From Carcharhinus longimanus (lineage: Eukaryota), in NCBI GenBank assembly GCA_030264375.1, contig JASCQW010000190.1, positions 98,978,714 through 99,042,713 of the forward strand: 64,000 nt of DNA, in the 5' to 3' direction. Below are positions 1,839 through 62,016 of the stretch, in pieces (the stretch's first letter is position 1; each line of letters starts with the position of its first letter). The translations under genes were made by a program, and so were the position numbers. The notes under the pieces were generated by a model. It worked only from the letters and a program-made list of their open reading frames with translations, was not told the DNA's origin and did not search any database.

Positions 1839-3030
1839 CTCAAGTCATTTGTGACGTGAGCTGGCGAAGACCATTTGAAATATAGATTTACATGCTATTG
1901 GGTTCGGCTCTTTGCTATGAGTTACTGTCAGCTGGAAGAATATTGCAGAATGAAAAACTGAAATACCTTCCAGTATTTAATGTGAGAAGTCTGTTGAATA
2001 GCAAGTTACCATTCCCTGAATGAATTAACAACTAATAGTGAAGACAGTAAAACCATTTTTTTAGGTCTCAGAGCTTGGTGAAAAATCTCCACTGAGTGTT
2101 ATAAAATCTATGCACACCATTTGGATGATGCATGTCAAACGTCCCTACGTTGTACATATATGCCTCACACCAGTATAAGAATTGGGGGAAAACTCTCCAC
2201 TGGATGGTTGAAGTCATCCTGAACACAAAGGAAGATGGTTGTGGCTGTTGGAGGTCTATTATCTCAATGCTTTTTCTTCACAAAAGTTATACACAAAATA
2301 TCTGAAAGAGCCTTACAAACTTTTCAAAATTGCCATCACACAAATTGCAATAATATAGAGGTTTTTTACATTATCATCACTGCACTCTTGAGACGCCTCA
2401 ATGCAATCAAACAAAAGTTACAGACATTTCAGAATGGTCATTAAAAATAGTGCAAAGGTATTTAAGTTGTCTACATGGATGAAGTTGCACTCTGAGGTGC
2501 TTCAATACAATTGTGATACATGTAATATTCACTGTATAAAATCAGTGTAAATCATACAGACTGAGGGAGTTCTATCCAATTCCTCTCCCCTGAAAGTTCT
2601 TAGATAACACCCTTCCCCCTGTCCCAAGCTTTAGTGCATCCCTCAGCTCATGGTCTTGGGATTTAGAATGCAATCATCTCAGTACTTGACAGTAGTGCAC
2701 AAGTTCCTCAGGATAGTCTCCTAGGCCCAATCATCTTCAGCTGCTTCATCAATGACCTTCACTCCTTCATAAGGTCAGAATGGAGATGTTCACTGATGAC
2801 TGCACAATGTTCAGCACCATTCATGACTCCTCACTTACTGAAGCTGTCTGTGTTGTAGTGGATTCTCACAAATATGAACTGATTTGTATATGGGGAATTA
2901 TCAATGTGTATGTTATAAGTGTCATAAAGTACTTACTTCTTTCTTACCCTAAATTATGCCTGGTAAATTGTAGGATTTGCGCCTTCAAATGGCTGTGAGA
3001 CAGACACCATGTCTGGCCAAACCCCTCAGT

Positions 3031-3172
3031 GAGAAGTCTCACAACACCAGGTTAAAGTCCAACAAGTTTATTTGATAATAAGCCAACAAGCTTTCAGAAC
3101 GCTGTTCCTTCGTCAGGTGAGTGTAAAGTTCTTACTGTGTTTACCTCAGTCCAACGCTGGCATTTCCACATC
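3031..3172 (-). mobile_element. Penelope-like fragment with partly degenerate hammerhead (3087-3120)
   Basis: Reverse complement contains TCAC-CTGACGA-A-GGAAC-AGC-GTTCT-GAAA-GCTT-GTTG. Flanked by the near-identical repeats AAACCCCTCAGT / AATCCCCTCAGT. Confidence 0.7.
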
Positions 3173-3807
3173 AATCCCCTCAGTCACAGGAAATCCTTTG
3201 TTTGGATATTCGTTCTCAGCTTTTGGTAGATACTAAGCTCCTCGACACTTATGATTATCAATAATGAGTAAAACAATAACTTGTAATTGTAAAAGCATTT
3301 GTCTAAACATCCTGGGTATGTTACAGATTGAAACTTTTACACGACGGGCTCCATCGTCAGCTCTTCTAACAATCAGAGGTGGGATTCTTTGTCTTATTGT
3401 GTGAGTATCAGCCCAGGAAATGAACCCTTAGCATGAGAGATGATATCACATCTGACAGTTCATGGAGCTGATCGTGCATTAGGTTAACCAATCATTGACT
3501 GCCACAAGGCATGAGAATGGAGGAAAACCGTGCACTAAGGTGGATAACAGGGCCTTCCTCCTTTGTTCCACTGCCATGCCATCAGGACTGTTGGCCAATT
3601 TGCATCAAATCCTCCCAAGCTTCTCCATGATGTAGCACTCTGTGCTTTACAGACTCTTATGCACAACTAAGCAAATGTCAACTCTGCTGGAACCTCATCA
3701 ACTTGGCAAAAGATGCTCTTCTTTGGTCTGCTTGAAATTTGTTGATCTTCCAGTGTGAAAAATTGCCTATGACCAGGTGTTGCCAACTGCCCCATTCCAA
3801 GGTCCTT

Positions 3808-27785: not shown

Positions 27786-30700
27786 TTGTTGAAGAAAAGC
27801 TGTTGGCCATAATTAACTTGGCAAATTTACATTTACTCTGCTTTCCTCACTGGTCTTCAAGTAGTTCCACAGAAACTTCCTTAGATATGGTTCCTCTTTA
27901 CACGTTCAAAACTGTCAATGAAAGAAGTGAAAAATTGTAACAAGAAAGAAAATGAACATGCTGCATGTAAGTGGGCTGTTTCTTTTTGTCAGAGTAATCA
28001 TATTTTCCTCCCTCTGTTGGCAAAACTGTTCAGCCCACAGGATGAACGTGACAGTTTAACCAACAAGAGAACGCCTCCAAATGCTTGGAGTTGCAATCTG
28101 AAAGCAGCTCTCATCATAAGCCGGGTTTCAGAGATAAGTGATGCCAAGGGTTTGCCAAGACTGTCCAACAAATGTGGTGTCAGTGCCAGCAAGATCCTAA
28201 CTTTCTGGACATCATGAAGAAAATCATTCTCAGCTGAGCCAAAACAAAGCCAAGAGAAATGATGCAAAATCATCCGATCTGCCGATAGCAACTTTTGCTT
28301 CCGTCAGCTGCCTGTCCCTTAGTTCACCAACGATCTTTTGCATTCATCCACTGCGCCTTATTCCACCATCTGGTTCTGCAGTTGTTTTCTATTTCCTATT
28401 AAGTCTTTTTTTGGGAAAAAAAACAATTTTCTAAGTTGTATCCATTGATTTTTAAGATATCATAAACATACCCTTACCTTCCCCTTAAACAATAGTGTCA
28501 AAAATCCTATAATGCTTGGACTGAATTGTTCCAAATCATTGCCATTAAATAATTCCAGTCTTGTATCCCTTGTAATGAACTGTTGGTGAGTTCAATACCT
28601 GCCTGAAGAACACAGATAGTAAAATAAATCTCAGGGGCTGGGTGGCAAAATTGTTTTGCACCTTGACATTCTATCTCTGAGAAATAGGTACAAACCCACA
28701 TTCGATCTATAGAAAATTTGGTCTCTTTGCCAGTTATGAGAATCCTTTGTGTCTATGTTTTAGTAACGTTAACCCAGTGGCAGCTCATAAGGCAACAGTG
28801 CAACAGTATATGATAATTAAATTGGCCAGCGGTGGGGTAACATATGAATTTCACATTCCTGGGTGATTCTGCCATCTGAAATTAACACTAAGGCACAATG
28901 GTGCAGAAATTAAAGAAACTTTACTCGGCATCCAACTGATGGTGTATCTGACCTTGGTGTGTTTGATAGTGGGACAAAAAGCATTAATTGGGTGACTTGT
29001 ATGGCCTCTTTCATGGCAGGGAGGGCATTTAACTGGGTGGGAAGGTAGTATGCTGCCTACTGCCTTCTCACTTCTGCCAACATTAAGCCCAGGCAGGAAG
29101 GTTCATGGACAGACATCTCACCCAAACACCAATTGAAGCCCTTAAATGGCCAATTAATGACCATTTAAGGGTGTCATCCTACTGCTGTTGGTATTACTGT
29201 AACTCTGGGAAGGTCTGTCACCATGAAGCACGCATGACAAGAAACATTGACCAGGCTGCTTGTGGTGTCCTGGTTGGTAGGGAAGTGGGGGGAGAGATGG
29301 AGGGGTGGGAGAAGGTGGTTCATTTCCAAAGACATTTAGTGCCTGATCAAGGAACGTGGCATATGGACAAGGCAGGCCCACTGAGAGTCATCCCATGCCC
29401 TTGCTACCCACCAGCCCATGAAGCCCCTTCTGCCATAATTTAGCTCTGGCCTGGCTGTTATTCAATTTTGGGTCTCCAGTGGCTGCCATTCCTGCAGCAG
29501 CCACAGCTTCCCTGGTAACATTGGTGAGCAAAACTGTTGCTGGCCTCTGATTAGCCAACAGCTCTCAGCAGCTGAGATTTCTGTCCCTGGGTCCTTGATC
29601 CTTTATGTTATCCATGTAAATACCTGAAAGGCACCTTTATCAGCAGGCCTTCTCAGAGGCAGCAACAACATTTGTCTCTTGCTGGCTGTCCAGCTGGCAG
29701 GAGAGACCCTGATACCTCCATTAAATCCCCCCATTCATTCATATGTGCTCTGCCCAAAAACAGGTCCTTACCTCATTATCTGCTGCTGCTTTATCCCGAG
29801 CCATTTTTCTTGGCAGATAGTTTGCTATTACCTGTCACTCTCAGGGACAGGACAAGGAGCCAAAACAGGAATCAAATCCACACTTTTGGTGACATTCTGA
29901 ACCATATGCTAACCAGCTAGCCAACTGGTCTAACCATGACAAAATTCCCAACATACACACCTCTTGCCTGGATCAGTGCAAGTAAGCTTTGTTGATAATT
30001 TAGTAGGTGTTTTCTGAACTGGTGTTAAGCTGCAGCAACCAGTTGTGCCTATTCAAACTGACCCAAGTAAACCAATCTTTACCACTGAAGCAAGTAAATA
30101 ATAAATTGGAAGATCAAACAGAGTTTTTGCTCTTAGTCATTAACTATCAGTTCATCTTGGGTATTCATGTGTGACCACTGAGGGAGGATGAGATTTGATT
30201 CATACGTGGTCACTTCTACAATTGTATAGCTGGCAGTTTCACTCATTGTATTGTTTCACACATGAAGAATTGTTACTTGTGCCTGGTACTTTGGTCCCTT
30301 GGGACTCTAAGCCTGTAAGATTCACTGTCTTTTTAAATGGATGGTAACAAAGTGGGAGAAAATTGGAAGAAAATAATTAAAATGTATATAAATCAAACAA
30401 ATTTTAACACTTCATATGCAAAATTATAACATAGATATGTACATTCAAATATAAAATCACTGAGCGCATTAACAGTGAAATTCTCAGTTCATAAAATTGT
30501 CCCCAAGAAATAACCAGTGGCACTTTTGTTGTGATCTAGCAACTGTGTGCTTCACAGTAAATTTTAACTTATTTATCTAGAACATTAAAAATTATGAGTG
30601 TATTTTATTTCCATGACCTAGATTGAATCAAACATGAGTATAAAGCGTTTTCACCAGGCTGCTAGATTTTTTAAACATTCTGCCCGAAGCAAGCTGGTTT

Positions 30701-31059
30701 CACACAAACAATTATGTAAGTGGACCATTTGATGGCAGTGCTGACACTCACATAGTCACACAGTCCAACCAACTTTAGCACTGTGCTTCCGGATTCAGTC
30801 TGGATGAATAATATCTGCACATCCCTTTACAATGTTGTTTTTTTTCAAGCATCAGAACAATTTATCAAGTGGTTGTTCTCAAGGGTATTTTTAAGAGCAT
30901 AATTTTATTCATTATAAATAATCAAGTTAATATTTTTTACAAACTGCAGTTTTTAGTACCTTATTGTATTTGCAAAACTGTCACAATGTACGAAGCTTAC
31001 AATGAATTACCTTTCAAATGCAATGAATGTTGTTTCTCGGTGGTTACATAGTTGCTGCA

Positions 31060-31450
31060 GACAATTGTAGGTGCAAATCCCAGTCTTGGACACAAAAACT
31101 GAGCTGACTTTCCAGTGCAATATTGAGGGAGTGTTGCACTGCTGGAGGGTCGTCTTCCAGATGAAGCACAAAAAGCCCTATCGGGTGGACAGAAAAATTC
31201 ATTCCACTATTTCAAGAAGAACAGGGAGTTATCACTAGTGTCCTCACCAGCTATTATTTCTCAACCAATATCACTAAAATTGATTATCCCCATGCTGCTT
31301 TGTGAGACGTTGATGTTCACATATTGGTTGCAGTAGCCCATTAGCTCACAACAGTGACTATATTTTAAATGCACTTCCTCAGCTGTTCAGAAATCCGAGA
31401 CATCCGAAGGTTGGAAAGACATATTATATTAATGCAAGGTATCTCTTTCT
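31060..31450 (+). mobile_element. DeuSINE (SacSINE1-like)
   Basis: Deu-domain-like motifs: CAGTGCAATATTGAGGGAGTGTTGCACTG, CCACTATTTCAAGAAGAACAGGGAGTT, CTCAACCAATATCACTAAAA, CAACAGTGACTA; L2-like tail TATATTAATGCAAG. Confidence 0.7.
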
Positions 31451-33174
31451 TTATATAGACAAATGTACTACCCAGACAGCAATGTGATGACCAATCATTT
31501 AACTTCTATAGGAAAACAGTTCAATTAAAACCAAAGAATGGGCCACTTTGAAAATATTGGCATTCTAATAAATGCCCTTTTGAGTGCTGAGAACAAATGG
31601 AAGAAAAGCGTTTTGGAAGTCAATATATTTTGATGCCAATGTGATTAGTTGAATGAAGTTTTTATCTTCTCATCCTGCAACAGTTTTCAATGGCCAATCC
31701 CCATTAATCTCTCAGGCATACAGGATTACCAATATAAAAAGTGCACTGGAGGTCAATATATTTTGATAAAATATTTTGATATCATAAATGACCTTTTAAA
31801 AAAATACTCAAATGAAAAATGTAAACATTTAGTTTTATTGAACAATAGACTTTTGTATTCATAGACCTGAACAGATCAGATTTTTTTTTCCCATGTCATT
31901 CAATATGATAATCATTCAGGAAACTAAAAGCTATCATTAGCTGAATATAGCCACTAAAATCTTTGCACTGTAAAATGGGCTGAAGCCAAATCAAACTAGG
32001 ATGAAATATCATCTCAGGCATCAACACTGTGAATAGCATTTCTTTTTTTTTGTCAATTGTATTTCTGATTGATTAACTTGCAGTAATTGTTTCTCAATCA
32101 AGTTATCTTTATTCAGCCAAATAAGACAAAGGGGCACCATCCAACAAAATAAAGGTTTGAATCCACGTAGAGAGATTTCAAAAAAACTTTAGGATAAAAA
32201 TTTTCATCCTGTATTCCCAGTCAGCAGCCATGTTCAAGGGAAGATTAAGTTGAAGATGGGGCTACAGCATGCAGCAGTGCTGATTCTCTGACTCTTAAAC
32301 CCAATCAGCATATTCACCTACTGAGAGCACAGGATTGACATATTTAGCTTTACATGTTTTGATGGTTTTGGAGTATCTGAAAAGGGCAAAATTGTGTTCA
32401 ATCGTGATGTCTCTTGTGTACAGCCTTTGGAACATGACTCACGGAGGAGTCTATAGAGGTCCTTTTTTTGGTCTCACTACCACCTTGAATTTTGGTGATG
32501 GTGAGATAGTAAAGGAATACAAATCTGGTGGGGAATCAGCTCCACTGGATTTCCAGTTGATTGAGACCCAACACGATATTTTGAGTTGGGCCTAAAACAG
32601 ACACTTCATCAACATATACAAAAAAACTGGAGTCTCGGAGCCATTTTCAGCCCAAGGAGAGTCCTGAACACCAGTGAAATGTTGTGGAAAAAGGTCTAGA
32701 AGAAAAATGACAGTTAAAAGGCCCACACATTTTAGGAGTAAGTCCATTCAAGATTTGAAGGGTCTTTTTTCAACAATCCTTTTATTTCTGTTTTAAGCTG
32801 ACATTTGCACTTTTATTAGTTTTAGGGACAATTATTTAATTTCTCATTTTGTCCACTTCTTCCCTAATTGCCACTGTGGAGGTTTCCTGTCAGGAACCTT
32901 TCAAGCTTACAGAGATTAGAGATGAGTGGAAGAATGTCAAGCAGGTCAAGCTAACCAAGATCTGTCCTTGACTTTCCCAGCATATGCACCCCAATATCTT
33001 CAGAGAAGTAACAAACATTGCCTTGACAGGAATGGAGACATTACTTCCCAATGATGGATGTGGTGTCACAATGAGATGTGAATACCTGTCTAACCCTTAT
33101 GCCAGAAAAAATTCAAAATATGTCCCAACAACAGCATGGTATTCCATAGGGCAAGCAGGACCCAGCATTGTCCA

Positions 33175-33520
33175 TTAGAACATATGACAATTAAAAAAAT
33201 AAGAGCTGGAGTAGGCCATTTGGCGCCTTGACCCCACATCACCATTTAACAAGATCATAACTGATCATGAATTCCATCTTCTTGACCATCTTAATATCCC
33301 TTAGCACCCTTACTATCCAAAAATTAATCAACTTCTGTCTTGAATATACTCTATGATTGAACATGTACAGTTCTCTGTGGTAGAAAATTCCAAAGATTTT
33401 CAACCCACTGAATAATGATATTTTTCCTCAGCTAAGTCCTAAGTGCTCTTAAACTGTGATCCAATGTTCTAGATTGTCCAGCCAGGAAAAATACTTCTCA
33501 TTATCTACCCTCGTTCCCTA
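33175..33520 (-). mobile_element. CR1 3' end
   Basis: Similar to 10250-10650 (GAGTAGGCCATT..., GGTAGAAAATTCCAAAGATT). Confidence 0.7.
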
Positions 33521-34222
33521 TTAGTTCTGGAATGCTTTTGGTGTCTTTGACCATGAAGACAGATACAAAATTTTTGTTCACTCCATTATTATCATTAAAA
33601 TTATTAGTCACATGCATCAAGATGCCACCAACCATTTATGCAGTCCCTGCCAATCAGTCACCACAACAACCATTCCCCCTCCCACTCCTCACCCTCCACC
33701 ACACCCCTCTACTTTGTGCCTTCACAAGAGGAAGGAAGATAATGAAAAAATATAGTGTAGAAAAACTGGCAGAATAATTTAAATTTTTATTGTTGATTAC
33801 AGTAAATTAATTATTGTTCCGACCCTAAAAACTGTGACACTTGAAATGTAGCGATTTGATTGTTTACTAAATAACAAGTGAAGTACTTTTATTCAATTAA
33901 ATATGTAACTATTAAGCAATACCACTGACGGCTCTATGTTCTTGGCAATGACTGTGACTAACTAATGCATTCAGAGGATTGACATACAGTTAAATAATAA
34001 CATTTATTCTCTGGTTTGAGTAGCTTTCTACACTGCTGAACAAGGTGATAATTCAAAGGAATGAAAAGAAAAAAAACAATAATTCATGTTTATAAAAACA
34101 AACACATCTTCAGCACTCAACGGTGCATTAGCCTCTTTCACAATGATCTACAGCACTCTACATTGTAAATATGTATAGGGTGGCCATGAAGCTGGCTGGA
34201 TCTCTCTTTCAAGATTTCTTGA

Positions 34223-34470
34223 TGTGGGTACTCTCCATTCACCTGACGAAGAGGCAGTCCCCTCGAAAGCTTGTGAGAATATTATCAAATAAATAGGTTG
34301 GACNNNNNNNNNNNNNNNNNNNNNNNNNNNNNNNNNNNNNNNNNNNNNNNNNNNNNNNNNNNNNNNNNNNNNNNNNNNNNNNNNNNNNNNNNNNNNNNNN
34401 NNNGAAAGCTTGTGAGAATATTATCAAATAAATAGGTTGGACTAAAACCTGGTGTTGTCAGACTTTTTAA
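34223..34470 (+). mobile_element. Penelope-like element pLTR fragment with hammerhead motif (contains N gap)
   Basis: TCACCTGACGAAGAGGCAGTCCCCTCGAAAGCTTGTGA...AAATAAATAGGTTGGACTAAAACCTGGTGTTGTCAGACTTTT, flanked by the 12 bp direct repeat AAGATTTCTTGA (34211-34222 and 34471-34482). Confidence 0.75.
34239..34276 (+). ncRNA. Minimal type-I hammerhead ribozyme motif
   Basis: Stem I TCAC/GTGA; core CTGACGA(+A); stem II GAGG/CCTC; GAAA; palindromic helix III AGCT; predicted cleavage after CUU (34272). Confidence 0.7.
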
Positions 34471-34626
34471 AAGATTTCTTGAGACATTGCTGAATTTTTA
34501 TCTTTTGTTTTCGTACCACCTGTGAGATATGTCTGGAAATAACAGTTTTCTCATTCTTTTCCACAATGAATGGTGTCTAAAGGTTTTTGTCTTCATGTCT
34601 GACCAACTCAGCTTGGACTTACTTGG

Positions 34627-34783
34627 GTGTGGAGATGCCAGCATTGGATTGGGGTGAGCACAGTAAGAAGTCTCACAACATCAGTTTAAAATCCAACAGT
34701 TTTTTTTTAATCTGAAAGCTCCAAAAGCTCACGGTTCCAAACAAACCTGTTGACGTTTAACCTGGTATTGTGAAACTTCCTAC
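34627..34783. mobile_element. Penelope-like fragment with internal inverted duplication
   Basis: CAGTAAGAAGTCTCACAACATCAG...CCAACAG faces its reverse complement CTGTTG...CTGGTATTGTGAAACTTCCTACTG. Flanked by the 13 bp direct repeat TGGACTTACTTGG (34614-34626, 34784-34796). Confidence 0.65.
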
Positions 34784-35684
34784 TGGACTTACTTGGACCA
34801 ACTTATTCTTGCCTTAGCACAGAAGGAACTGTAGAAGCTTGTGTAGGGCCTCGACTGATATTTTGGATAAGTTACATGTTCCTTCTAAAGTGCAAACTAT
34901 TCTTTTCAATTTACTTCATTACCTCTCTCCACCCTCCATATGAATAGATTATGTTGCTTAATTGCAATACCACTAGTATAATTATTAGATATATTTCTAC
35001 CCAAAAGGAGATATATTTTGCCCGAAGGTAATGTTTGGGAAGATTTTAAGTAACAGTTTGGTGTTTTGTTCCTAAAGATGCTCAGATTGATGTGACTTAG
35101 AGATCACCTTACATTTAAAATCCAACTGTTGCACATTTGTCCAATTTGTAATAAAACAAGAAACTAAATATTATTTGTTTAAGATTTATTTAGAATCAGG
35201 CTGGAACATAACATGAGGAAGGATGGGTACATTTCAGTAACAATAAGGAAAATACTCCTGAAGTTATTGGTTTCTTGCTCCGATATGATGGATAGGTTGC
35301 AGTCACTCACCAGTATTTCATCCCAACCATCTTAAGAATGAACCCTGAGAGTTCTTGTTGGGAGGATGTTCAACAATAAAAGACACCACATCAAGCACTT
35401 GACCTATGGACACTTCCAGTGAGGCCACTGAATAACTTCAAAGAGCAAAAACCCTCCCGAGTGACTTTATTCACTGTAATCCAGGACTCAAAATACAATT
35501 TAATAAGCAGCATTACTACTGTTTAGGTTAGTATTAGTTAACACAGACCAGGGATTAGTTATGGAATCTTGTTGATGAACATATTTCATCTACTCACTGG
35601 CACTGAGTCATTATGAAGCTGCGGTTGTTTGCATCAATGTAAAAGAGAAATTGAGTATTAACAAACTGCTGATAAAACGATTAC

Positions 35685-35785
35685 AAAAACAGAAAATGCT
35701 GGAGAAACTCAGCAGGTCTGATACTATTTGTGGAAAGAGAATAGAGCCAAAGTTTTGAGTCAGGATGACCCTTTGTTAGAGCTGA
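35685..35785 (-). mobile_element. Second Penelope-like family fragment with decayed hammerhead core
   Basis: AAAACAGAAAATGCTGGAGAAACTCAGCAGGTCTG...TTTTGAGTCAGGATGACCCTTTGTTAGAGCTG. The minus strand gives CTAACAA-AGGGTCATCCTGACTC-AAAA, i.e. CTGACGA/GAAA after G>A changes. Confidence 0.5.
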
Positions 35786-35799
35786 TACAATGATTATCT

Positions 35800-36146
35800 G
35801 GATTCAAATGTATGGGATTCAGATTCAGATGTATGGGATTGTGGGTAATCTAGGAAGTTGGATCAGGAATTGGCTATCAGATAGGAGACAGAGGGTGGTG
35901 GTNNNNNNNNNNNNNNNNNNNNNNNNNNNNNNNNNNNNNNNNNNNNNNNNNNNNNNNNNNNNNNNNNNNNNNNNNNNNNNNNNNNNNNNNNNNNNNNNNN
36001 NNTTTAAGAGATCTGTGGATAGGTTTATGGACGAAAAGGGATTGGTATAGGCTAGTGGGTCATTGTTTTTGTAACTGGTGGGCGCAACATCGTGGGCCGA
36101 AGGGCCTGTTCTGCGCTGTAATGTTCTATGTTCTATGTTCTATGTT
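35800..36146 (+). mobile_element. CR1 fragment (gapped) with (TGTTCTA)n tail
   Basis: GIVGNLGSWIRNWLSDRRQRVV; tail GGGCCGAAGGGCCTGTTCTGCGCTGTAATGTTCTATGTTCTATGTTCTATG. Confidence 0.85.
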
Positions 36147-36959
36147 CAATACATTGTACCTGGTAGGCCTTACAGCAGCCCTTGAAATGAAAAATCTCTC
36201 AAATACATTCATTTCAATGATTTCCTACTTTAAAAAAGAAGTTCATTTCATTTGCATCAATAACAACAAAAACAACATTTTGTTTGTAGCATTTTGAATG
36301 CAGTAAAATGTCCAATGGTGCATCAAACAAAATATTAACATTCAGACACATACGGAAATGCGAGAGAGGAAGACCAAACATTGGATGAAAATGTTATGTT
36401 TTGGGGAATCATAAAAGAAGAAAGAAAGATAGAGAGGCAGAGAGTTTAGAGAGTGAATTTCAGAGCATAGGGCCTAGGTATGGTCACTATGGCCCGTATG
36501 GTCACTTACCAATGGAATCAAGGTTGATCAAAGGGTCAGAATGCATCTGGATTTTAAAAAATATAAAAGTAGCAAGTGGCAAGGCCGTGGAGAGATTTAA
36601 AATAAGGATATAAGTTCTAAAACTGAGATGCTGCTTAACCAAGGGCCAAGATAGGTTAATGAGCACAAATACAATAGATAAATGGGACTTGATGTGGTTA
36701 AGATATTTGGCCATCAAATGTGTCCAACACTTTTGCAGAGCAGGAGCAAATACCTGTGCATTTTCCATATCAACAGTGGCCCAAGCCTACCTGTTTTAGA
36801 TGTTACAACAAATACACAAACTTTTGTTTGACATTATGTGGTTGGGCAACATGGAGATAATTTTACTCAATTGGCACATTTGTTACAGAATCAAAAAATA
36901 GCTAGTCACACAAAATAAGTTATGAAATCACAACATTTCTTTTAGGGACTAGTCTGCAT

Positions 36960-38070
36960 TCAGATGAAAGGCTTGCCTTATGAAAACAGAACAGGTTGGG
37001 CCTATACCCATTGGAGTTTAGAAGAGTAAGAGGTGATCTTATTGCAACATAAAAGGTCCTGAGAGGCTTTGAAACTGAGAGGGTGTCTCCTCTTGTCAGG
37101 GAGATGAGAACTAGGGGCCAATGCTTAAGATAAGAGATGTCCCTTTTAAGTCAGAGATGAGGAGAATTTATTTTCTCTCAGAGGATCGTTACTCTGAGGA
37201 ATTCTCTTCCCCAGAGAACAGTGGGGTCCAGGTCATTGAATTTATTCAAGACTGTGTTCAGTAGATTTTTGGCTGATGATGAAGTACAGGGTTGTGGAGG
37301 AAAGACAGGAAAATGGAACTGAGGTCACAGTCAGACCAGTGATGAACTTATCAAATGGTGGAGCAGGCTCAAAGCACTGAATGGTCTACTCAGTCTCTGA
37401 ATTCCTACATTCCTACGTTCATCCCATAATTATTACCCTGAAGTATTCATGGATAAGTAACAAAAATAATCAAAAGTTTAACTCATGGAACACAGATCTT
37501 TAGATCTTGAGGATGAAAAACAAGGAGATATTAGTTTGCTGCAGTGATCCAAAACTCTGACAAGACAACAGCTAGAGTACTCTCAACAGTCCCTGGGCTT
37601 CTTAGGAAGCGTATGTTGCCCTTGGGAGGAAGAGCAGTGTAGATTTACCAAAATAATACTTGAACCCTAAGCCTTAACATATGAGAAGAAATTACAGCAC
37701 CTGAAGTTGTATTCTCTGGAATTTAAGGGGAGGTTTGAATGAAGTTTTTAGGGGATATTGAGGAGAACTGATAGGGTAGATATTTCTGTTGGCCAGAAAG
37801 TCCCTCGACTCTGGATCTTAGTCCAGACATTAGAACCATATCTTTTAGGAATGAAATTAAGAAACATTTCCACATGCAACTTGTGGTAGAAATCTGAATC
37901 TCTCCTTGGCAATTCATGTTGGATCAGTTGTTAATTTTCATTCTGAGATTGCTAGATTTTGTTAATCAAAGGTATTAAAGGATATGGAGTTAGGTTGCAG
38001 CATCAACAGTAATGTCATTGAACGGCAGACAGGTTACAGAGGCTAAATGGCTTACTCCTGTCTCTAATTT
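36960..38070 (+). mobile_element. Two CR1 3' fragments (~36960-37400, ~37590-38070)
   Basis: LEFRR.RGDLI motif, TRG..L.IR..PF..EMRR.FFSQR.V.L.NSLPQ, and CR1-type 3' UTRs. Confidence 0.75.
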
Positions 38071-38967
38071 CCAATCTGGTATACAACAACAGTTGCTGGG
38101 TAGGAGAATGTCACTGTTATAGTAATTGTCAAAATCTGGCAATGCATCCTGTCACCCCTGAGGATATATGATTCTGACATCTTATATATTCAAGTGACAC
38201 AGGCAAAAACAGTTGAAGTTGCACTGTGAGGGATTTGGGGAACTGAAGTTCCTGTAGCTCTATCTATCAAGTGATGGAAAACCGAATATGAATCACCAGA
38301 TGTGCAATTTGACAAATACGTTATTGAGCATGACGTGAGCAAGGCAGTGGAATAGTATAGTGCAAAATACCGAAAGAAGATAAATAAGAGTGCCGTTTAA
38401 ACCTTCACAATGAACCATCTGGAATAACGGCAGTCCTCCCCGGATTCAGTCACCTTTTTCATTCATCCTTGAACCACAGAAGTATAATTGATCTTGCCTA
38501 CCAGTTTACTAATCATCCTCAACCGAATTTCAAATTAGTCAACATATACCCTGAAGTGTTGTGGTGAACGCAGAGGTAGTCAATAGTGCTGCTATTGCGA
38601 AACCAGGCTTTGTTGAAAGGATAGGTCTTTTAATAAACAAAGTGCTTTGCAGCTACAAACAAATGGAGTACACAAAACATAAAGGAAACAACATAACGTG
38701 GAAAACATTTAATGATGTTGAATTCAGAATTCTGGTTAGACAGGAAAACACCTTCATCTAGCTTATCAGTGAAACTAGCATACACTTCCTGTCATGTCAG
38801 GAGTGACTCATAGGAGACTGAGACTGCAGGACTGGATAACAGATTTTTTTTGTATTCATTCATGGAACATGGGTGTCATTGGCTGGCCAGCATTTATTGC
38901 CCATCTCTAGTTATCCTTGGAGGGCAGTTGAGAGTCAACCACATTGCTGTGGCTCTGGAGTGACACA

Positions 38968-39035
38968 GTAAAAAGTCTGACAACACCAGGTTTTAGTCCA
39001 ACCGATTTATTTGATAGTAAACTCACAAGCTTTCG
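38968..39035 (-). mobile_element. Penelope-like pLTR fragment cut by assembly gap
   Basis: Near-identical to 61735-61802; ends CACAAGCTTTCG at the N run. Confidence 0.7.
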
Positions 39036-39523
39036 NNNNNNNNNNNNNNNNNNNNNNNNNNNNNNNNNNNNNNNNNNNNNNNNNNNNNNNNNNNNNNNNN
39101 NNNNNNNNNNNNNNNNNNNNNNNNNNNNNNNNNNNNNNNNNNNNNNNNNNNNNNNNNNNNNNNNNNNNNNNNNNNNNNNNNNNNNNNNNNNNNNNNNNNN
39201 NNNNNNNNNNNNNNNNNNNNNNNNNNNNNNNNNNNNNNNNNNNNNNNNNNNNNNNNNNNNNNNNNNNNNNNNNNNNNNNNNNNNNNNNNNNNNNNNNNNN
39301 NNNNNNNNNNNNNNNNNNNNNNNNNNNNNNNNNNNNNNNNNNNNNNNNNNNNNNNNNNNNNNNNNNNNNNNNNNNNNNNNNNNNNNNNNNNNNNNNNNNN
39401 NNNNNNNNNNNNNNNNNNNNNNNNNNNNNNNNNNNNNNNNNNNNNNNNNNNNNNNNNNNNNNNNNNNNNNNNNNNNNNNNNNNNNNNNNNNNNNNNNNNN
39501 NNNNNNNNNNNNNNNNNNNNNNN

Positions 39524-40530
39524 TAATCACTGTTCTGTGCTGAGATACCTGGTCTTGGTTTGGGCGGTGGTCGAGGTGCAACAAATGATCCAGGGAGCAG
39601 AAAATCAGTCAAATTGATTACTCCTGATTACTGGCCCCTCCTGGCTGTTTGGGTAAGAGCATCAGATGCTTATAGGATAAGTGATGCGCTCCAATCCAAA
39701 ATACTCACCCACACTCATCGAAAAGGTTAAGACTTTAATAATGATTACTTGACTGAGCTAATAAGGCTAAAAATTGATTGGAAAGAAAAAAATGTTTAAA
39801 CAAAACAAAATTTGAAAAAAAACCTGAAATGATTGGTTTTAATTGTACTCAGTGTCCTGCAATTCAAGATTCTTGGATGTCAATCTCTGGAAAACATTGA
39901 GTACAGATTTCTTTACATCGATTCATTTGTGGACAGCTTCTACTAAGCCCTTGGCATGCAAGAGTTTCAGGACAAATATTTTCAGATTTATTTTATTTCA
40001 TCTCCAGTTCTTTGATCACTCAATTGCAGAGCAACAATGTCAATGAACCAGCAACCCCTTCATTTAATTTTTAAATAGGTTATTGACAGCCATATCCAAA
40101 AGCTAAAGGACCTCATTGCATGACATAGAAACAAAATAAATGAGTGTCCTTGCTTTCCAACTTGCACCGTACAATGTCCATGACATGTTCTTGAAAACGA
40201 TCTCTCATCAATTAAAACCAATCATTTCAAGGTTTTTTTAAAATTTTGTTTTGTTTCAACATTCTTTTCTTTCCAGTCAATTTTTAGCCTTATTAGCTCA
40301 GTCAAGTAACCACTATTAAAGTCTTAACCTTTCCAATGAGTGTGGGTGAGTACTTTGGATTGGAGCGCATCACTTATCCTATAAGTATCTGATGCTCTTA
40401 CCCAAACAGCCAGGAGGGGCCAGTAATCAGCAACAATCAATTTGACTGATTTTCTGCTCCTTTGATCATTTATTGCACCTCAACCACCGCCCAAACCAAG
40501 ACCAGGTATCTCAGCACAGAACAGTGATTA
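39524..40530. repeat. Long inverted repeat: 322 bp arms (39524-39845 / 40209-40530) with a 363 bp spacer
   Basis: The arms align end to end as reverse complements with roughly 18-19 differences by hand count; the left arm abuts an N gap. Confidence 0.95.
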
Positions 40531-52309: not shown

Positions 52310-52397
52310 AAGTTGCTGCTTTTTTTTTAATTTTTATTTTGGGGATGGGGTGAGATTGATTTGTGGAGGAGCTGAGCTGCGGTGTTGCTGGAAAGGG

Positions 52398-52450
52398 GGA
52401 GAGAGAGAGAGAGAGAGAGATCGCTGCCGCCGCCGCTGCTGCTGCTGCTG
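52398..52450 (+). repeat. (GA)n followed by (GCC)n(GCT)n microsatellite directly 5' of the ATG
   Basis: gagagagagagagagagagaga tcgctgccgccgccgctgctgctgctgctg ATG. Confidence 0.9.
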
Positions 52451-55400
52451 ATGGAGAGGCGAGGAGGGCTGGATGTGTGGCGAGGCGCCTCCGCCGCCGC
52501 CGCCCGCTACCTGCTGCTGGGGCTGCTGGCGCTGCGAGCCGGGGCCGGCGGGCAGGAGCGCGACTACACCCTGCGGGAGGAGCTGCCCGACAACGTGCTG
52601 GTGGCCAACCTGGTGCGGGACCTCAACCTGACGGCGGCGGCGGCGGCCGGGCTGCCGCTCACCTTCAAGCTGGTGTCCAAGACCGGGGACGCCCCGCTGC
52701 TGCGGGTGGAGGGCGGCAGCGGCGAGCTCTACACCACCCCGCACCGCATCGACCGCGAGAAACTCTGCGCCAACGTCTACAGCGACAGCCGCTGCTTCTA
52801 CGAGGTGGAGGTGGCCGTGCTGCCCAACGAGGTCTTCCAGCTGGTCAAGATGCGCTTCCTCATCGAGGATGTCAACGACAACGCGCCCCTCTTCCCCTCG
52901 GCCGTCATCAACATCTCCATCCCGGAGAACACCGCCGTCAACTCCCGCTACTCCATCCCCTCCGCCCTGGACCCCGACGTGGGCATCAATGGCATCCAGC
53001 ACTACGAGCTGCTCAAGGGGCAGAGCGTCTTCGGGCTGGACATCATCGAGACCCCCGAGGGGGACAAGTGGCCGCAGCTGATTGTCCAGCAGAACCTGGA
53101 CCGCGAGCAGAAGGACACCTACGTGATGAAGATCAAGGTGGAGGACGGGGGCTTGCCCCCCAGGTCCAGCACCGCCATCCTCCAGATCACCGTCACCGAC
53201 GTCAACGACAACCGGCCCGTCTTCAAGGAGGGCGAGGTGGACGTCCACATCCCCGAGGACGCGCCGACGGGCACCTCGGTCATCCAGCTGCATGCCACCG
53301 ACGCCGACCTGGGCTCCAACGCCGTGGTCCGCTTCTCCTTCAGCAACCAGGTGTCGGCGCTGGCCAGGCGCCTCTTCGCCGTCGACGCCGCCACCGGCCT
53401 GATCACCGTCAGGCAGCCGCTGGACCGCGAGGAGTTCCCGGTCCACAAGCTGACCATCTTGGCCAGCGACGGCAGCTCGACCCCGTCCAGAGCTGTGGTC
53501 ATCGTCAACATCACCGATGTCAACGACAATGTGCCAACCATCGACACCAGGTACATCATTAACCCCGTAAATGGCACCGTGTTGCTGTCCGAAAACGTAC
53601 CACTTAATACCAAAATCGCACTGATAACAGTCACAGATGAGGATGCAGATTTAAATGGGAAAGTTACCTGCTTCACTGATCACGATGTGCCATATCGTTT
53701 GAAACCTGTGTTTGAAAGCCAGTTCTTGTTAGAGACTGCAGCCTTGCTGGACTATGAGAGCACTAAAGAATATACTATTAAGATAGTGGCTTCTGATGCA
53801 GGCAAACCACCGTTAAATCAATCAGCCACTGTGGTGATTAAACTGAAGGACGAGAATGATAACGCTCCTGTTTTTAATCAGCCTGTAATTGGCCTGTCAA
53901 TCCCTGAAAATAACACCCCTGGTACACAGTTAACAAAAATCAGTGCCACGGACGCAGACAGTGGGAAAAATGCAGAGATCACTTACCTCCTGGGTCCCAA
54001 TGCCCCATCCATCTTCAGTGTAGATCGGAGAACTGGCATTCTGTCAGCCATGAGGAGATTAGACCGTGAGAAGCAAGACCGCTATGTCTTTACAGTACTG
54101 GCCAGGGATGGAGGAAGGCCTTCCATTCAGAGCAATGCTACTGTGGTTGTGACTGTGTTGGATCAAAATGACAACAGCCCTTCCTTCACACACAGTGAGT
54201 ACAACTTCTACGTGCCTGAAAACTTACCCATGTATGGGACAGTTGGACTTATCACAGTTACAGATGCAGATGCTGGAGGTAATGCGGCCGTTAGCCTGTC
54301 CATCTTGAATGACAAAGGTTACTTTATAATTGACCCCACCAGTGGTGTTATCAAGCCCAATATTACATTTGACAGGGAGCAGCAAAGTTCCTACACGTTT
54401 CAAGTCATGGCTGTGGATGGAGGTAGGCCTCAACGGTCTTCAGTGGCCAGGGTGACTATAAATGTCGTTGATGTAAATGACAACAGTCCAGTGTTTGTGT
54501 ACCCTCCATCTAACTTCTCATATGAACTGGTCTCTACTTCCGCTAACCCTGGCTCCGTGGTGGGGAAAGTTTTTGCAATTGACAATGACACAGGGATGAA
54601 CGCAGAGCTTCGCTACAGCATTGTCAGTGGGAACTCCAGAGGACTGTTTGCCATTGATCCAATGACTGGCAATATCACTTTGCAAGAAAAGGTGACTACA
54701 TCAGACCATGGTTTGTACAGACTCGTGGTGAAGGTCATCGACTTGGGACAGCCTGAATCCTTGCATGCCATGGCACTTGTGCATTTGTTTCTGAACGAAA
54801 CCATCAATAATTTCACCTATGTCCAAGAGCTGGTGCGGAAGAGCATGGAGACTCCTTTGGACAAGAATGTTGGGGACAGTCAGATGACTCCACAGACCAA
54901 TGACTATATTAAGATTGTTATTGCCATCATAGCTGGGACTATGACTGTCATCCTTGTCATTTTTGTGACTGCTTTGGTGCGCTGTCGCCACACACCAAGG
55001 CACAAAACTGTGCAGAAGGGGAAACAGAGTGGGGAATGGGTTTCTCCCAATCAGGAAAACAGACAGATTAAGAAAAAGAAACGAAAGAAGAAGAGGTCTC
55101 CAAAGAACCTTCTTCTAAATTTTGTCACCATTGAGGAGTCCAAACCTGACGACCCGGCCCACGAACACATCAATGGCACTTTGGACCTTCCGGTGGAACT
55201 GGAGGATCAGACTATGGGGAAGTACAACTGGGGCAAAACGCCTACCACTTTTAAACCAGATAGTCCCGATCTAGGAAAGCACTACAAGTCGGCCTCCCCA
55301 CAGCCCTCCTTTCAAATCAAGCCAGAGACTCCGGTGCCAGTGAAGAAACACCATGTCATCCAAGAGTTACCGCTGGATAACACATTTGTGGTGGGCTGCG

Positions 55401-55504
55401 ACTCCCTGTCCAAGTGTTCTTCGAGCAGCTCTGACCCCTACAGCGTATCAGAGTGCAGCTGTCAGGGAGGCTTCAAGACTGCAGGGCCAATCCACACCAG
55501 ACAG
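52451..55504 (+). CDS. PCDH11X: Delta-1 protocadherin, PCDH11(X)-like: large first coding exon (signal peptide, EC1-EC7, TM, proximal cytoplasmic domain); partial CDS
   Basis: First in-frame ATG of the 52382..55522 ORF is at 52451, followed by a hydrophobic signal ([16 protein letters not shown]). There are six DxNDN linkers plus a seventh EC, repeated LDRE/LDYE motifs, a TM segment ([22 protein letters not shown]) and a basic KKKKRKKK patch. Motifs recalled as PCDH11- rather than PCDH9-specific: [71 protein letters not shown]. Donor CAG|GTAATG after HTRQ at 55504/55505; read-through gives VMQRF-stop at 55522. Confidence 0.9.
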
Positions 55505-58500
55505 GTAATGCAGAGATTCTAACTGGCCCTCACACAGAGATCTTGTCTTGAAGATTAAAAGCCTTGAATGGTCATGCATGGCTGAGGCATTGAAATGTAA
55601 ACAGCTTGTGATTCATCAATGTTGGAGAGAGAAATTAGAATGAAGTGGCATTTAGCTGGTGGTGATTTGCTGAGTTGTTGTTTCAACAATATTGTCTCTA
55701 GGTGGCACTGTAGTACTTCCTGGGTGTACAGAAAGCTGCAGCAGTTGTGAAAAGTACTGTGAAGTAGCAAGCACAGGAATCCTGAGATGCGTAGTGCAGG
55801 TGCAGTGTGAGGCTGTACAAAATCGATCTTTTGGTTTCTGTTCAGAGACGTTGGCACCAGCAGTAAGGAAGGGAGGAACAGACCACACATTACACAGCAA
55901 AACAGTATCCCATTATACTGAAGAACAAAGACAGCAATATATTTAAAAAAAAACTTGTAATAAAACTGCTGTGAATCAACCATTGCCTTTCTGTTTAAAT
56001 GAACATGCTTTTGTCAGGAATGTTCTGTAATTTCTAAATCTGGAGGTCTCCGGGGAGGAGGGGAAAAGAAGTGCTTCTCAATTCCGTTCCGTAGAATCAG
56101 TGAAATTCTCAAGCTGTCAAACCTCGGAATGTCAGAAACACAACAGCATGATTATTCAAGTTTTGATACACCTAATGTGACTTCTGTATCATCGCGCATG
56201 CTGGAGTCTGGCTGCCTAAATTAATTGTCTATTTTTAAAGTGTTGAACAGGCACGTTGAATTACATAGGCAGCAGGCATACCACGTATCGTCTGTGTCTT
56301 AAGAAATTGATATTGAGTTTACAGAGCCAGCCCCCTGGGTCACAGTTGAAAAATATGCCCTCGTTTTTCTCGTGCCAACCCTTCTAATGCTTTTAACGCA
56401 ACCACATATTTGTGAAAAATAGGAGACTGGGGGTAAATACAAATCCTTGTAGCAAAATGAGGCAGTTAAAAATGAAGAGAAAACGGATATGCACCAAAAT
56501 TATCTTGAGGACTGAGGGGAAAGAACGATGGTGATACAGGTGTTTTCAAAAGCATGTTGATTGACAGATGTGTTGTGGGAGGATGTACTTGCAAACCTTA
56601 ATGGCAACAAAAGTCCTCAAAATGATATGCAAATGTTTCAAATGAAATGGGTGGCAGAACAGTGTGTACTATTGAACATTGTAATGTCTGTTTTAATGTA
56701 GCTCTCTGAATCTCCATTATTCTACTGTGCTGCGTTCCTTTGAGACCTGTTTAACCCTGGTAGGCAAACGGAACCGTAGCTGGAGCCAAACCGCTACCGG
56801 CTTTGCTGCTCAGTTAATTATTCAACTGCTTGGAGGACAATTGCATGTACTGTTTGTCTCAAGTATTTTCCCTGTGAGTAGATTTTGTTTTTGTCTAGCA
56901 TTTTAGGTCAGTAATCTGTGTTATCAATCACACACAAAAAAACGGAGAGAGACTAATAAGATAGGGTTAGTTCACCGAGCAACTTAAAGCTCAAATTCAC
57001 AGAAGCATTTAGCTCCAGGAATTGCGTTTCACTGATTTTTTGGAGCCTATTCATCCATCAATATGCTTGTTTCCTGGTGTGAATAAACATTTCACTGGGT
57101 CCTGTGGCTCTATTCNNNNNNNNNNNNNNNNNNNNNNNNNNNNNNNNNNNNNNNNNNNNNNNNNNNNNNNNNNNNNNNNNNNNNNNNNNNNNNNNNNNNN
57201 NNNNNNNNNNNNNNNNNNNNNNNNNNNNNNNNNNNNATTAGATTGTGGTTTTCCTGAGGATTGGCTGAGCAGTAAACAAGGCTGTAACCTGATTTTGCAG
57301 AACGTGCAATTGAACTGGTGCAGACACTCAGTCATTGCTCAGCTGTGGGCATCTGACAGTATGCCCACTAAAATGACACATGGTTGTCTAGAAAATGCCT
57401 CTTTTTTTTATATAGTGTAGGTTAAGCTTTCCACAGTTGTAGAGAATATATTCTATTGATGATGTTTTTGGGGGGGTTTGTGTGGAAGGGGGAGGGGAGA
57501 GCTTCCCAGATGTTTTGTTCTGGCATTTCCTTAAATTGATGCCCTGTCTTTGTTTTTGTGGTAGAGAGCACTAAAGATACGTGTGCACTTTAATATTAAG
57601 AATGCCATACATATTTAATCAAGTCTGTGAAAATGTTGTATTTTTACCTTTCCAAAAATATGTTTGTTTGACTTCTTTGAACACGTTTATTGAACTATAC
57701 CTCCTACTTAACACAGTGAAGCAGAAACTAGGCTGTAATTAAAGATAAAAGGTGTGATTTAATAATGATAAACCTGTGGCCCTTCTCACCTTTGGTAACT
57801 ATGGTCATGTCATTGTTGATGGTGCTCTTTTAAGATCCATTTGCGGTTACTGGCTTGTGTGAAGTCTTATTGTTACTATATTTACAGTTAATACTGGACA
57901 TGCGTTTTGTTGCATTTCAAGTAAACTGTTTTTCTTTTGAATCTTCACAACAGATTTGAAAATGATAGGTGAGAGCAGCAGCACAGACTTGTTGTACAAT
58001 TCCTACTTAATAATCCCATGGTTAAGCCCTGAATGCCATTTGCAGCTTCCATGGATTACTTCTTTCTGTGGTATTCCATACAGATCTACAATACTGTAGA
58101 TGCTTTATCTGTAACAGTAAATCAAAGAAGCAGAACACATGCAATAAATCAAATAGAGCAGAAAGGTATATGGATTCCACAAGAAATGTTCTTTCAGAGC
58201 TGGCAAACATTATTTGCTCAGGTCATTTGTTTTTGTTTACAGAAATGTTATGTTTTTAAAATTTATATTATACAAGAAGTACAATGTTGAAGTAGTCAGA
58301 ACAGAGTGACCGATTCCCATTTTGGTTACCTCATTTTGGCCATTCAAATTGTCCGAAGAGGGAACTAATCCTATTATTAAACTGAAATACACTAGACAGT
58401 GCTTGTTCGTTTTGAAAGAAGCTGTTCAGTATGGGCTAATGTTCATCCTTGATATTGCAACATGTTGTCATGCAAATTAATTGACTCGAGTGGAACTTTA

Positions 58501-60914: not shown

Positions 60915-61789
60915 ATGGATAAGTGTTTCAACAGAAGATGAGTTGAGACAGGGTGGAGTTAGATGATACAGAGGTGGAAAAATAAAGCATTAGTGATGGT
61001 GCGGTTATGTGGTGAGATGCTCATCTGAACTCTTAAGGTACTTGTCTACTAAATCAATGCTGTTGACAACAGCAGTGCAGATTTCCCTTTTAAACAAGAA
61101 AGACCAAGTTGGAAATGGCGGCATGGGTTATTTAAAGTTAGGAACTGGTTCAAGAGAGTTGCTTCATGTGAGTCAATCTAGGAAACCAGTGGAACAGCAG
61201 AAACTCACAGCCCAATCTAAATGTAAAAAGTATGTTCATCTAAAATCTTCCTCCAGATGTAAGTGTAGAAGTGGCTTTGTTTGCAGATGCAACTGAGCAT
61301 AGTAAGATTATGCAGAAGGAATAGGTTTACACCATCACTTGAACATTTTCCTCTCTTTATGGAGAAAACCAGATCAAAGTAGATGTAAGTTTATAAATGC
61401 TCACCTTCACTATTATAAGATGAACACATTTCAATCCATGCGTCAGTCGTGTTTCACAAAAGAACCTACTCTTTTCAGTGAGAATGGAGTTATCTGTAAT
61501 GACCAATCAGAACAATTGAATAAAACTATCAGGTATTACTTTCTCTTGCTAACTGAACTTGGGCTGCACGTTTTCGAGGTGAACTAATGGTTTCTGAAAA
61601 CTGCAATTATAGTTTTTCTCTTGCCTGTTTGACTTACGAGAATTATACTTAGCAAATAACCTGTAAATATCCAGCTTTTCAAAAAGTGAAACTTTCTCCC
61701 CAAATTCAGTTGTTCTGTCCTGTATCCAAGACTGGTAAAAAGTCTGACAACACCAGGTTTTAGTCCAACCTATTTATTTGATAATATTC

Positions 61790-61824
61790 TCACAAGCTTT
61801 CGGGTTAGACCCTTCGTCAGGTGA
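61790..61824 (-). ncRNA. Minimal type-I hammerhead ribozyme motif (in Penelope-like fragment ~61735-61835)
   Basis: Reverse complement reads TCAC-CTGACGA-A-GGGT-CTA-ACCC-GAAA-GCTT-GTGA. Confidence 0.7.
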
Positions 61825-62016
61825 ATGGAGAGTTCTGGCCTCAGACAGAGCATATAAAGCACAGACAGTTTAGAGTATATTTTGAAGTACTGAGTTACTT
61901 GGATTCTCTTGAATACTCCACCATTAAAAATAATGACAGCACTTCAGAAGTTATTTATTGTCCGTGAAGAGCTTTGAAACATCCTCAAGAGGCAGTAAGG
62001 GGTTATATCAAAGTCA

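Follow-up and report, generated by a model that had tools for sequence, protein, structure and literature searches.

An intact minimal hammerhead motif in a young Penelope-like insertion of Carcharhinus longimanus, probably a single copy beside an assembly overlap

Introduction

In the 64,000 nucleotides of Carcharhinus longimanus DNA analysed here (the window), a complete hammerhead ribozyme motif ends shortly before a 100-N gap, and part of it recurs right behind that gap. Is this a ribozyme with a tandem partner, or a single copy whose neighbour arose in the assembly? Minimal hammerheads (min-HHRs) in the pLTRs of metazoan Penelope-like elements (PLEs) were defined by Cervera and De la Pena (2014, PMC4209133); the available part of that paper reports monomers that did not cleave and dimers with low cleavage. 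For PAc, a PLE of Anolis, the available text of Frangieh et al. (2024, PMC11167929) describes reverse transcription that begins at two adjacent internal sites, which define a tail, a hammerhead that cuts only when the protein of the element is present, and uncut RNA as the main template.

Results

The motif and its core

The minimal type-I hammerhead at 34239-34276 on the forward strand has all its core bases intact (Table 1). The 38 letters are as the original prediction had described them, including the reduction of helix III to the palindrome AGCU, and the cut it placed after CUU agrees with hammerhead numbering. All the parts that define a min-HHR were found: the CUGANGA and GAAA boxes with U16.1-H17, helices I and II, the G10.1-C11.1 pair, the extra base and a palindromic helix III. 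The hammerhead descriptor that had been proposed as a check matched twice in the window (34239-34276 on the forward strand and 61820 on the reverse strand), compared with a mean of 0.0 matches in 100 mononucleotide shuffles. In the genome searched (2.68 Gb) the 38-mer has 336 exact copies and its reversed control has 0. Taken together, these counts argue that the motif did not arise by chance. The Rfam scan, also proposed, returned four weak matches in 30000-40000 at E ≤ 10 and no hammerhead among them, and the folding energy of the motif is ordinary (z = -0.46); the case therefore has to be made from the conserved bases and the family.

Table 1. Positions of the insertion, its ribozyme and the flanks of the gap
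Feature	Position	Strand	Remarks
Left target-site duplication (TSD), 12 bp	34211-34222	+	single copy at the empty site in X2, X4, X5
Putative inverted pLTR 'tail' remnant, 7 nt, at 5' junction	34223-34229	-	resembles inverted heads of other copies
Direct pLTR piece, 5' end, 9 nt ahead of stem I	34230-34238	+	compared with 61820 (minus) and L031
Minimal type-I hammerhead	34239-34276	+	stem I, CUGACGA box, extra A, stem II, GAAA box, AGCU, H17
Stem I	34239-34242 with 34273-34276		4 Watson-Crick pairs
C3-A9 box (CUGACGA)	34243-34249		
Single extra A	34250		between 9 and 10.1
Stem II	34251-34254 with 34261-34264		6-nt loop, G10.1-C11.1
GAAA box	34265-34268		G12, A13, A14, A15.1
Palindrome AGCU (helix III)	34268-34271		
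H17 (U)	34272		cut predicted after CUU, between 34272 and 34273
pLTR 3' of ribozyme	34277-34303	+	end of left contig
100-N gap	34304-34403	.	likely placeholder for a negative (overlapping) distance
39-nt exact repeat of 34265-34303	34404-34442	+	likely assembly overlap
pLTR 3' end	34443-34470	+	at the family's usual stop
Right target-site duplication, 12 bp	34471-34482	+	

A recent insertion

The 12-bp flanking duplication seen by the original prediction is a true TSD. In all three other runs compared (X2, X4 and X5; two studies, one of them giving X2 and X5) contigs join 34210 straight to 34471, with flanks about 1-2% different from the window, and these empty sites establish that the insertion is real and recent. 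A contig of X1, which may be the source sample, contains the left junction as far as 34257 with 0 differences. With the gap flanks merged, a single insert of 121 nt including one TSD is obtained (~109 nt plus the TSD).

Copies of the family share their 3' end but differ at the 5' end. The 34-nt 3' anchor has 5,947 exact genomic copies (reversed control 0), and in 68 of the 90 copies sampled the end falls in a span of 5 nt, 11-15 nt past the anchor; the window insert ends 10 nt past it. Where the 5' end is closed, it falls 0-12 nt ahead of stem I in 23 of 29 copies; 12 of 41 ends are open, and since the 5' end of 72 of the 90 3'-anchored copies disappears in a gap, the map favours short copies. 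A relaxed form of the hammerhead motif gave at least 20,787 genomic matches, with 0 for the reversed control.

An inverted head made of pLTR tail stands at the 5' junction of 33 of the 90 copies (21 have too few called bases to tell), and where it is visible the TSD measures 12-16 bp in 29/33 and 12-13 bp in 24/33. We suggest that 34223-34229 is what is left of such a tail: it agrees with the beginning of the longer inverted heads at L010, L027 and L031, as well as with the reverse complement of the forward tail at L080 and L047. The piece is short and is assigned by its position; it may reach 11 nt if three bases shared with the TSD and one shared with the direct part are counted. With this piece the insert would combine the 5' truncation, inverted 5' piece, tail and TSD of PLEs that encode an endonuclease (EN+). 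A TATA-like motif, which longer copies carry ~30 nt upstream, is absent from the insert with its direct part starting at 34230.

Related sequences and a gene in the window

Several other family members lie in the window. On the minus strand there are a copy at 61735-61870, with an intact core at 61820 and a different stem II, a copy at 38970-39035 that runs into a 488-N gap, and a copy at 3030-3170 of an older subfamily (3116) with an inverted head. An older related Penelope insertion occupies 34614-34796, 130 bp downstream of the young one, between 13-bp TSDs (34614-26 and 34784-96). Its inverted head is long; of the hammerhead, only a decayed 3' half is left, and contigs of X2, X4 and X5 enter the insertion from both sides. 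This remnant (34627-34783) was considered as a cis partner and rejected because it lacks a CUGANGA box and a complement for stem I. Elsewhere in the genome, the loci L097, L098, L236 and L241 hold opposite-strand, head-to-head hammerhead pairs, from a few to ~250 nt apart, an inverted layout known for PLEs. The window also contains a protocadherin first exon, a 1,048-codon open frame at 52376-55522 (+) in a GC-rich island, whose translation matches protocadherins in the PDB strongly, protocadherin-1 and -10 among them.

The repeat across the gap

The recurrence reported right after the gap is present: 34404-34442 equals 34265-34303 at 39/39 positions, so that the two gap flanks overlap exactly, suffix to prefix. 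We take the 100 N as a placeholder length, because this exact length is shared by 5 of the 10 gaps in the window and because at L032 a gap of that size replaces just 4 nt of a single copy. When 93 copies were examined, 62 were free of N within 130 nt from stem I (one of these reaching a contig end), 21 had a gap without overlap, and 10, the window copy included, had a gap together with an overlap of 13-42 nt. A gap lies just upstream of the anchor in 72 of the 90 3'-anchored copies, and in 55 of these 72 the sequence resumes 20-37 nt before the anchor. The window copy resumes 22 nt before it, where most contigs that enter the repeat stop.

Head-to-tail copies were also sought directly. A genome search for the junction pattern with a spacer of up to 90 nt gave 0 places, a count biased low, since k-mer contigs and short-read assembly under-report true tandems. 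Placed in single-copy order, the two motifs occur at 3,261 places. No joints were seen among 2,485 X1 contigs aligned to the single copy, a comparison blind to junctions that run through the tail. These data are strong, if indirect, evidence for two contigs that overlap inside one repeat copy, and the apparent tandem is probably artefactual.

The original prediction had gone further and proposed that the repeat, if real, provides the tandem arrangement for dimeric cleavage. That the gap conceals a real second head-to-tail copy, and so a cis double hammerhead or two-unit, retrozyme-like insert, strikes us as very improbable. Such an arrangement would have precedents, since PLEs form partial tandems (available text of PMC8557442; L057 below) and a 2026 preprint reports, in its available part, PLE-derived tandem retrozymes in one chondrichthyan genome (10.64898/2026.07.22.740005). 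Moreover, no read or contig spans the gap; X1 covers the left junction up to 34257 and is without cover at 34512-34613. Against it stand the exactness of the overlap and its recurrence, with varying lengths, in 9 of the 92 other copies, the resumption of the right flank at the usual contig stop, the 0 short junctions set against 3,261 single copies, and the lack of joints in the X1 contigs. The animal non-LTR retrozymes of the preprint resemble the window copy in being non-coding, PLE-derived and equipped with a type-I hammerhead. They are, however, defined by at least two tandem units with complete hammerheads; all indirect tests favour one unit here, and the window copy falls short of the definition unless the unspanned gap hides a second.

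Four of the 93 copies appeared to have a second hammerhead without an intervening gap. Three were discarded because the stems were lacking, and the fourth, L057, is real. There, at 1526-2150 on the minus strand, a young hammerhead, a 3' piece of the endonuclease, a UTR and, 492 nt on, a hammerhead of an older subfamily follow each other ungapped. This partial tandem is a natural candidate for dimer cleavage in cis, or an assembly chimera.

The parent element

Upstream of the related hammerheads in longer, older copies (L161, L162 and L057) lie ORF remnants with an RT motif, a CX4CX2C linker, a GIY-YIG-like motif and CCHH residues, followed by a UTR and the hammerhead. The RT fragment matched Pfam RVT_1 with E 0.008, below the cut-off, and the GIY-YIG motif was read by eye, Pfam making no GIY-YIG domain call. 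Among 20 homologues of the ORF, 17 are shark proteins and three have an RT domain (PF00078); PDB sequence searches with the ORF pieces gave no relevant match. The linker, present in the translations of L161 and L162, agrees with the CX2-5CxxC definition of Neptune and is also common to Nematis; placed before GIY-YIG, it is a feature of the Neptune and Nematis clades (PMC8557442, available text). As read from these translations, the layout is the one described for endonuclease-bearing PLEs, with a linker of the Neptune/Nematis type. The youngest subfamily is tied to the ORF only via gapped or mixed loci (L125, L057, L061 and L090), and no full-length element was recovered from the copies walked upstream.

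The RT/endonuclease remnants in related copies and the features of the family uphold the proposal of a Penelope-like pLTR insertion: the insert is a young, 5'-truncated pLTR end of a Neptune-like Penelope element. Pieces of the endonuclease region also occur in five shark proteins that bear host names (septin 5a, FAM210B, PPP1R12A-like, IQCK and NOXP20-like; P0009, P0012, P0015, P0018 and P0020), either as exonised remnants or as gene-model errors.

Variation of stem-loop II

Selection by just the 5' leader and the 3' strand of stem I gave 2,305 copies, and the first 100 of them were compared. In these near-identical copies stem-loop II takes 53 different sequences. The pair 10.2-11.2 is G-C in 52, A-U in 42, G-U in 4 and mismatched in 2, the paired changes across members expected of a min-HHR, in related copies whose counts are not independent events. 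The GCU after the GAAA box is preserved in 88/100, and the whole core is intact in 48/100, most losses being G-to-A changes at CpG sites. Discrete classes also exist for the five bases that follow stem I on its 3' side (L168-L265); H17 is U in 79/100 and A in 19/100.

Markers on either side of the ribozyme are linked with each other (adjusted MI 0.31, n=35, and 0.35, n=56; p<=0.004), and because this linkage extends over the cleavage site, a crossover at exactly that site is not supported. For the stem II swap the linkage to flank markers is weak, 0.01-0.08 for five pairs inspected and 0.18 with one rare marker. A tree of 37 of the 100 copies does not group the swap; it needs 10 changes for it, compared with 12.5 when the labels are shuffled (as few in 51 of 500 shuffles). 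The tree contains no well-supported branch, and a single origin of the swap is compatible with it. One speculative reading, to which we give a minor share of the probability, is that stem-loop II behaves as a fast-changing, always-paired cassette in a near-constant backbone, produced either by repeated RNA-level variation selected for folding or by exchange of hairpins between transcripts. If so, the exchange would occur during dimer formation or reverse transcription. Selection on source elements, transcript exchange, hairpin-templated mutation, which is a known mechanism, and chimeric assembly are all candidate causes.

The family data also bear on the function of the locus. A chance motif, or a host-domesticated ribozyme that regulates the nearby protocadherin gene, would fit the missing Rfam hammerhead, the ordinary fold z-score and the position of the protocadherin exon, ~18 kb downstream on the same strand. 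We give this virtually no weight: identical copies are dispersed by the hundred, stem II pairing is maintained through swapped pairs across the family, and the insert is missing in three close relatives and is hence recent, not conserved.

Origin of the insertion and cleavage

By analogy with the lizard PAc, the RT-endonuclease of the element would have nicked both strands 12 bp apart. Of the two start sites near the end of the pLTR, reverse transcription would have used the inner one and broken off 9 nt ahead of stem I, and the 7-nt inverted piece may stem from a second start at the outer 'tail' site. In the parent element the RNA would cut as a double hammerhead, with two AGCU palindromes forming a 4-bp helix III, probably helped by protein.

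In a monomer, helix III would have to consist of 2 bp with a loop of 0 nt between the strands. Because helix III cannot close, the window copy is likely inert without a partner RNA or the element's protein. No intact partner on the same strand was found in the window, the other intact motif lying 27 kb away on the opposite strand; with helix III unclosable and the TATA-like motif missing as well, cleavage would need read-through transcription plus either a partner in trans or the protein of the element. Nearest-neighbour energies, which leave out tertiary contacts and protein, give -13.7 kcal/mol for the trans double hammerhead versus -16.2 for two monomers, and in the local context -11.8 for the best fold versus -9.7 for the hammerhead. 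Of the catalytic competence originally suggested, what stands is that no core base is mutated; the published monomers of the same type did not cleave (PMC4209133, available text). We are therefore left with a highly probable reading in which the locus holds a single, catalytically silent copy of an intact hammerhead motif in a TSD-flanked young Penelope end, its neighbour being an assembly overlap.

A single copy might still be cut slowly in cells, through trans pairing of read-through RNA or folding by the element's protein. The intact core (48/100 among the sampled relatives), the thousands of possible partner copies and the cutting of the PAc hammerhead once protein was added (PMC11167929, available text) speak for such activity, which we nevertheless hold to be very unlikely. 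The youth of the insert accounts for the intact core, no ORF of at least 130 aa overlaps the site, the lowest-energy local fold is not the hammerhead, and CUU is outside the fastest triplets, GUC and GUA (PMC3138052). None of the 22 sequencing-run matches listed came from RNA, a result that carries no information on expression.

Discussion

The kind of sequence found here has already been published (Cervera and De la Pena, 2014, PMC4209133), and the probably silent single copy adds a shark case. As far as the available text of that paper goes, the motif agrees with metazoan PLE min-HHRs in its type-I form without loop III, the palindromic 15.2-16.2, the extra base between 9 and 10.1, G10.1-C11.1 and the 4-bp helix I, as well as in the mostly dispersed single copies from truncated elements and the high variability within a genome. 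Its helix II, on the other hand, has 4 bp, unlike the 7-8 bp of the Schistosoma min-HHRs. The shark motifs, at least 20,787, compare with ~4,000 in coelacanth and ~9,000 in Xenopus, counts obtained with different descriptors. Sharks are unnamed in the first half of the text and in supplement file 2. A literature search for work devoted to shark PLE hammerheads found none, in a coverage that leaves most subscription journals outside.

PAc (Poseidon_Ac) of Anolis, in the available description (PMC11167929), likewise has a hammerhead in the pLTR, two end points 30-40 nt apart and inserts with an uncut ribozyme. It belongs to the Penelope/Poseidon clade and was assayed biochemically, whereas the shark ORF remnants have the Neptune/Nematis linker and are known from sequence. 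The available texts on EN+ PLEs of the Neptune clade (PMC8557442; PMC3846280) describe the same 5' truncation, inverted 5' piece, one-sided tail and short TSD, and the same trouble in assembling them from short reads. The window copy departs from those insertions in its small size and in an inverted piece that would be down to 7 nt.

Exact overlaps across 100-N gaps in the Carcharhinus longimanus assembly mimic tandem ribozymes and call for caution. The variability of Penelope hammerheads has been called hard to explain (PMC4209133, available text). If the cassette reading of stem-loop II is true and survives long-read assembly, a vertebrate would offer a direct test of this hypervariability. 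As a locus the insertion is unremarkable, one stub among the thousands left by a known ribozyme-bearing retrotransposon. Being recent, and with empty sites in close relatives, it shows late activity of the family, which is thereby a candidate system for studying the role of Penelope hammerheads in cells.
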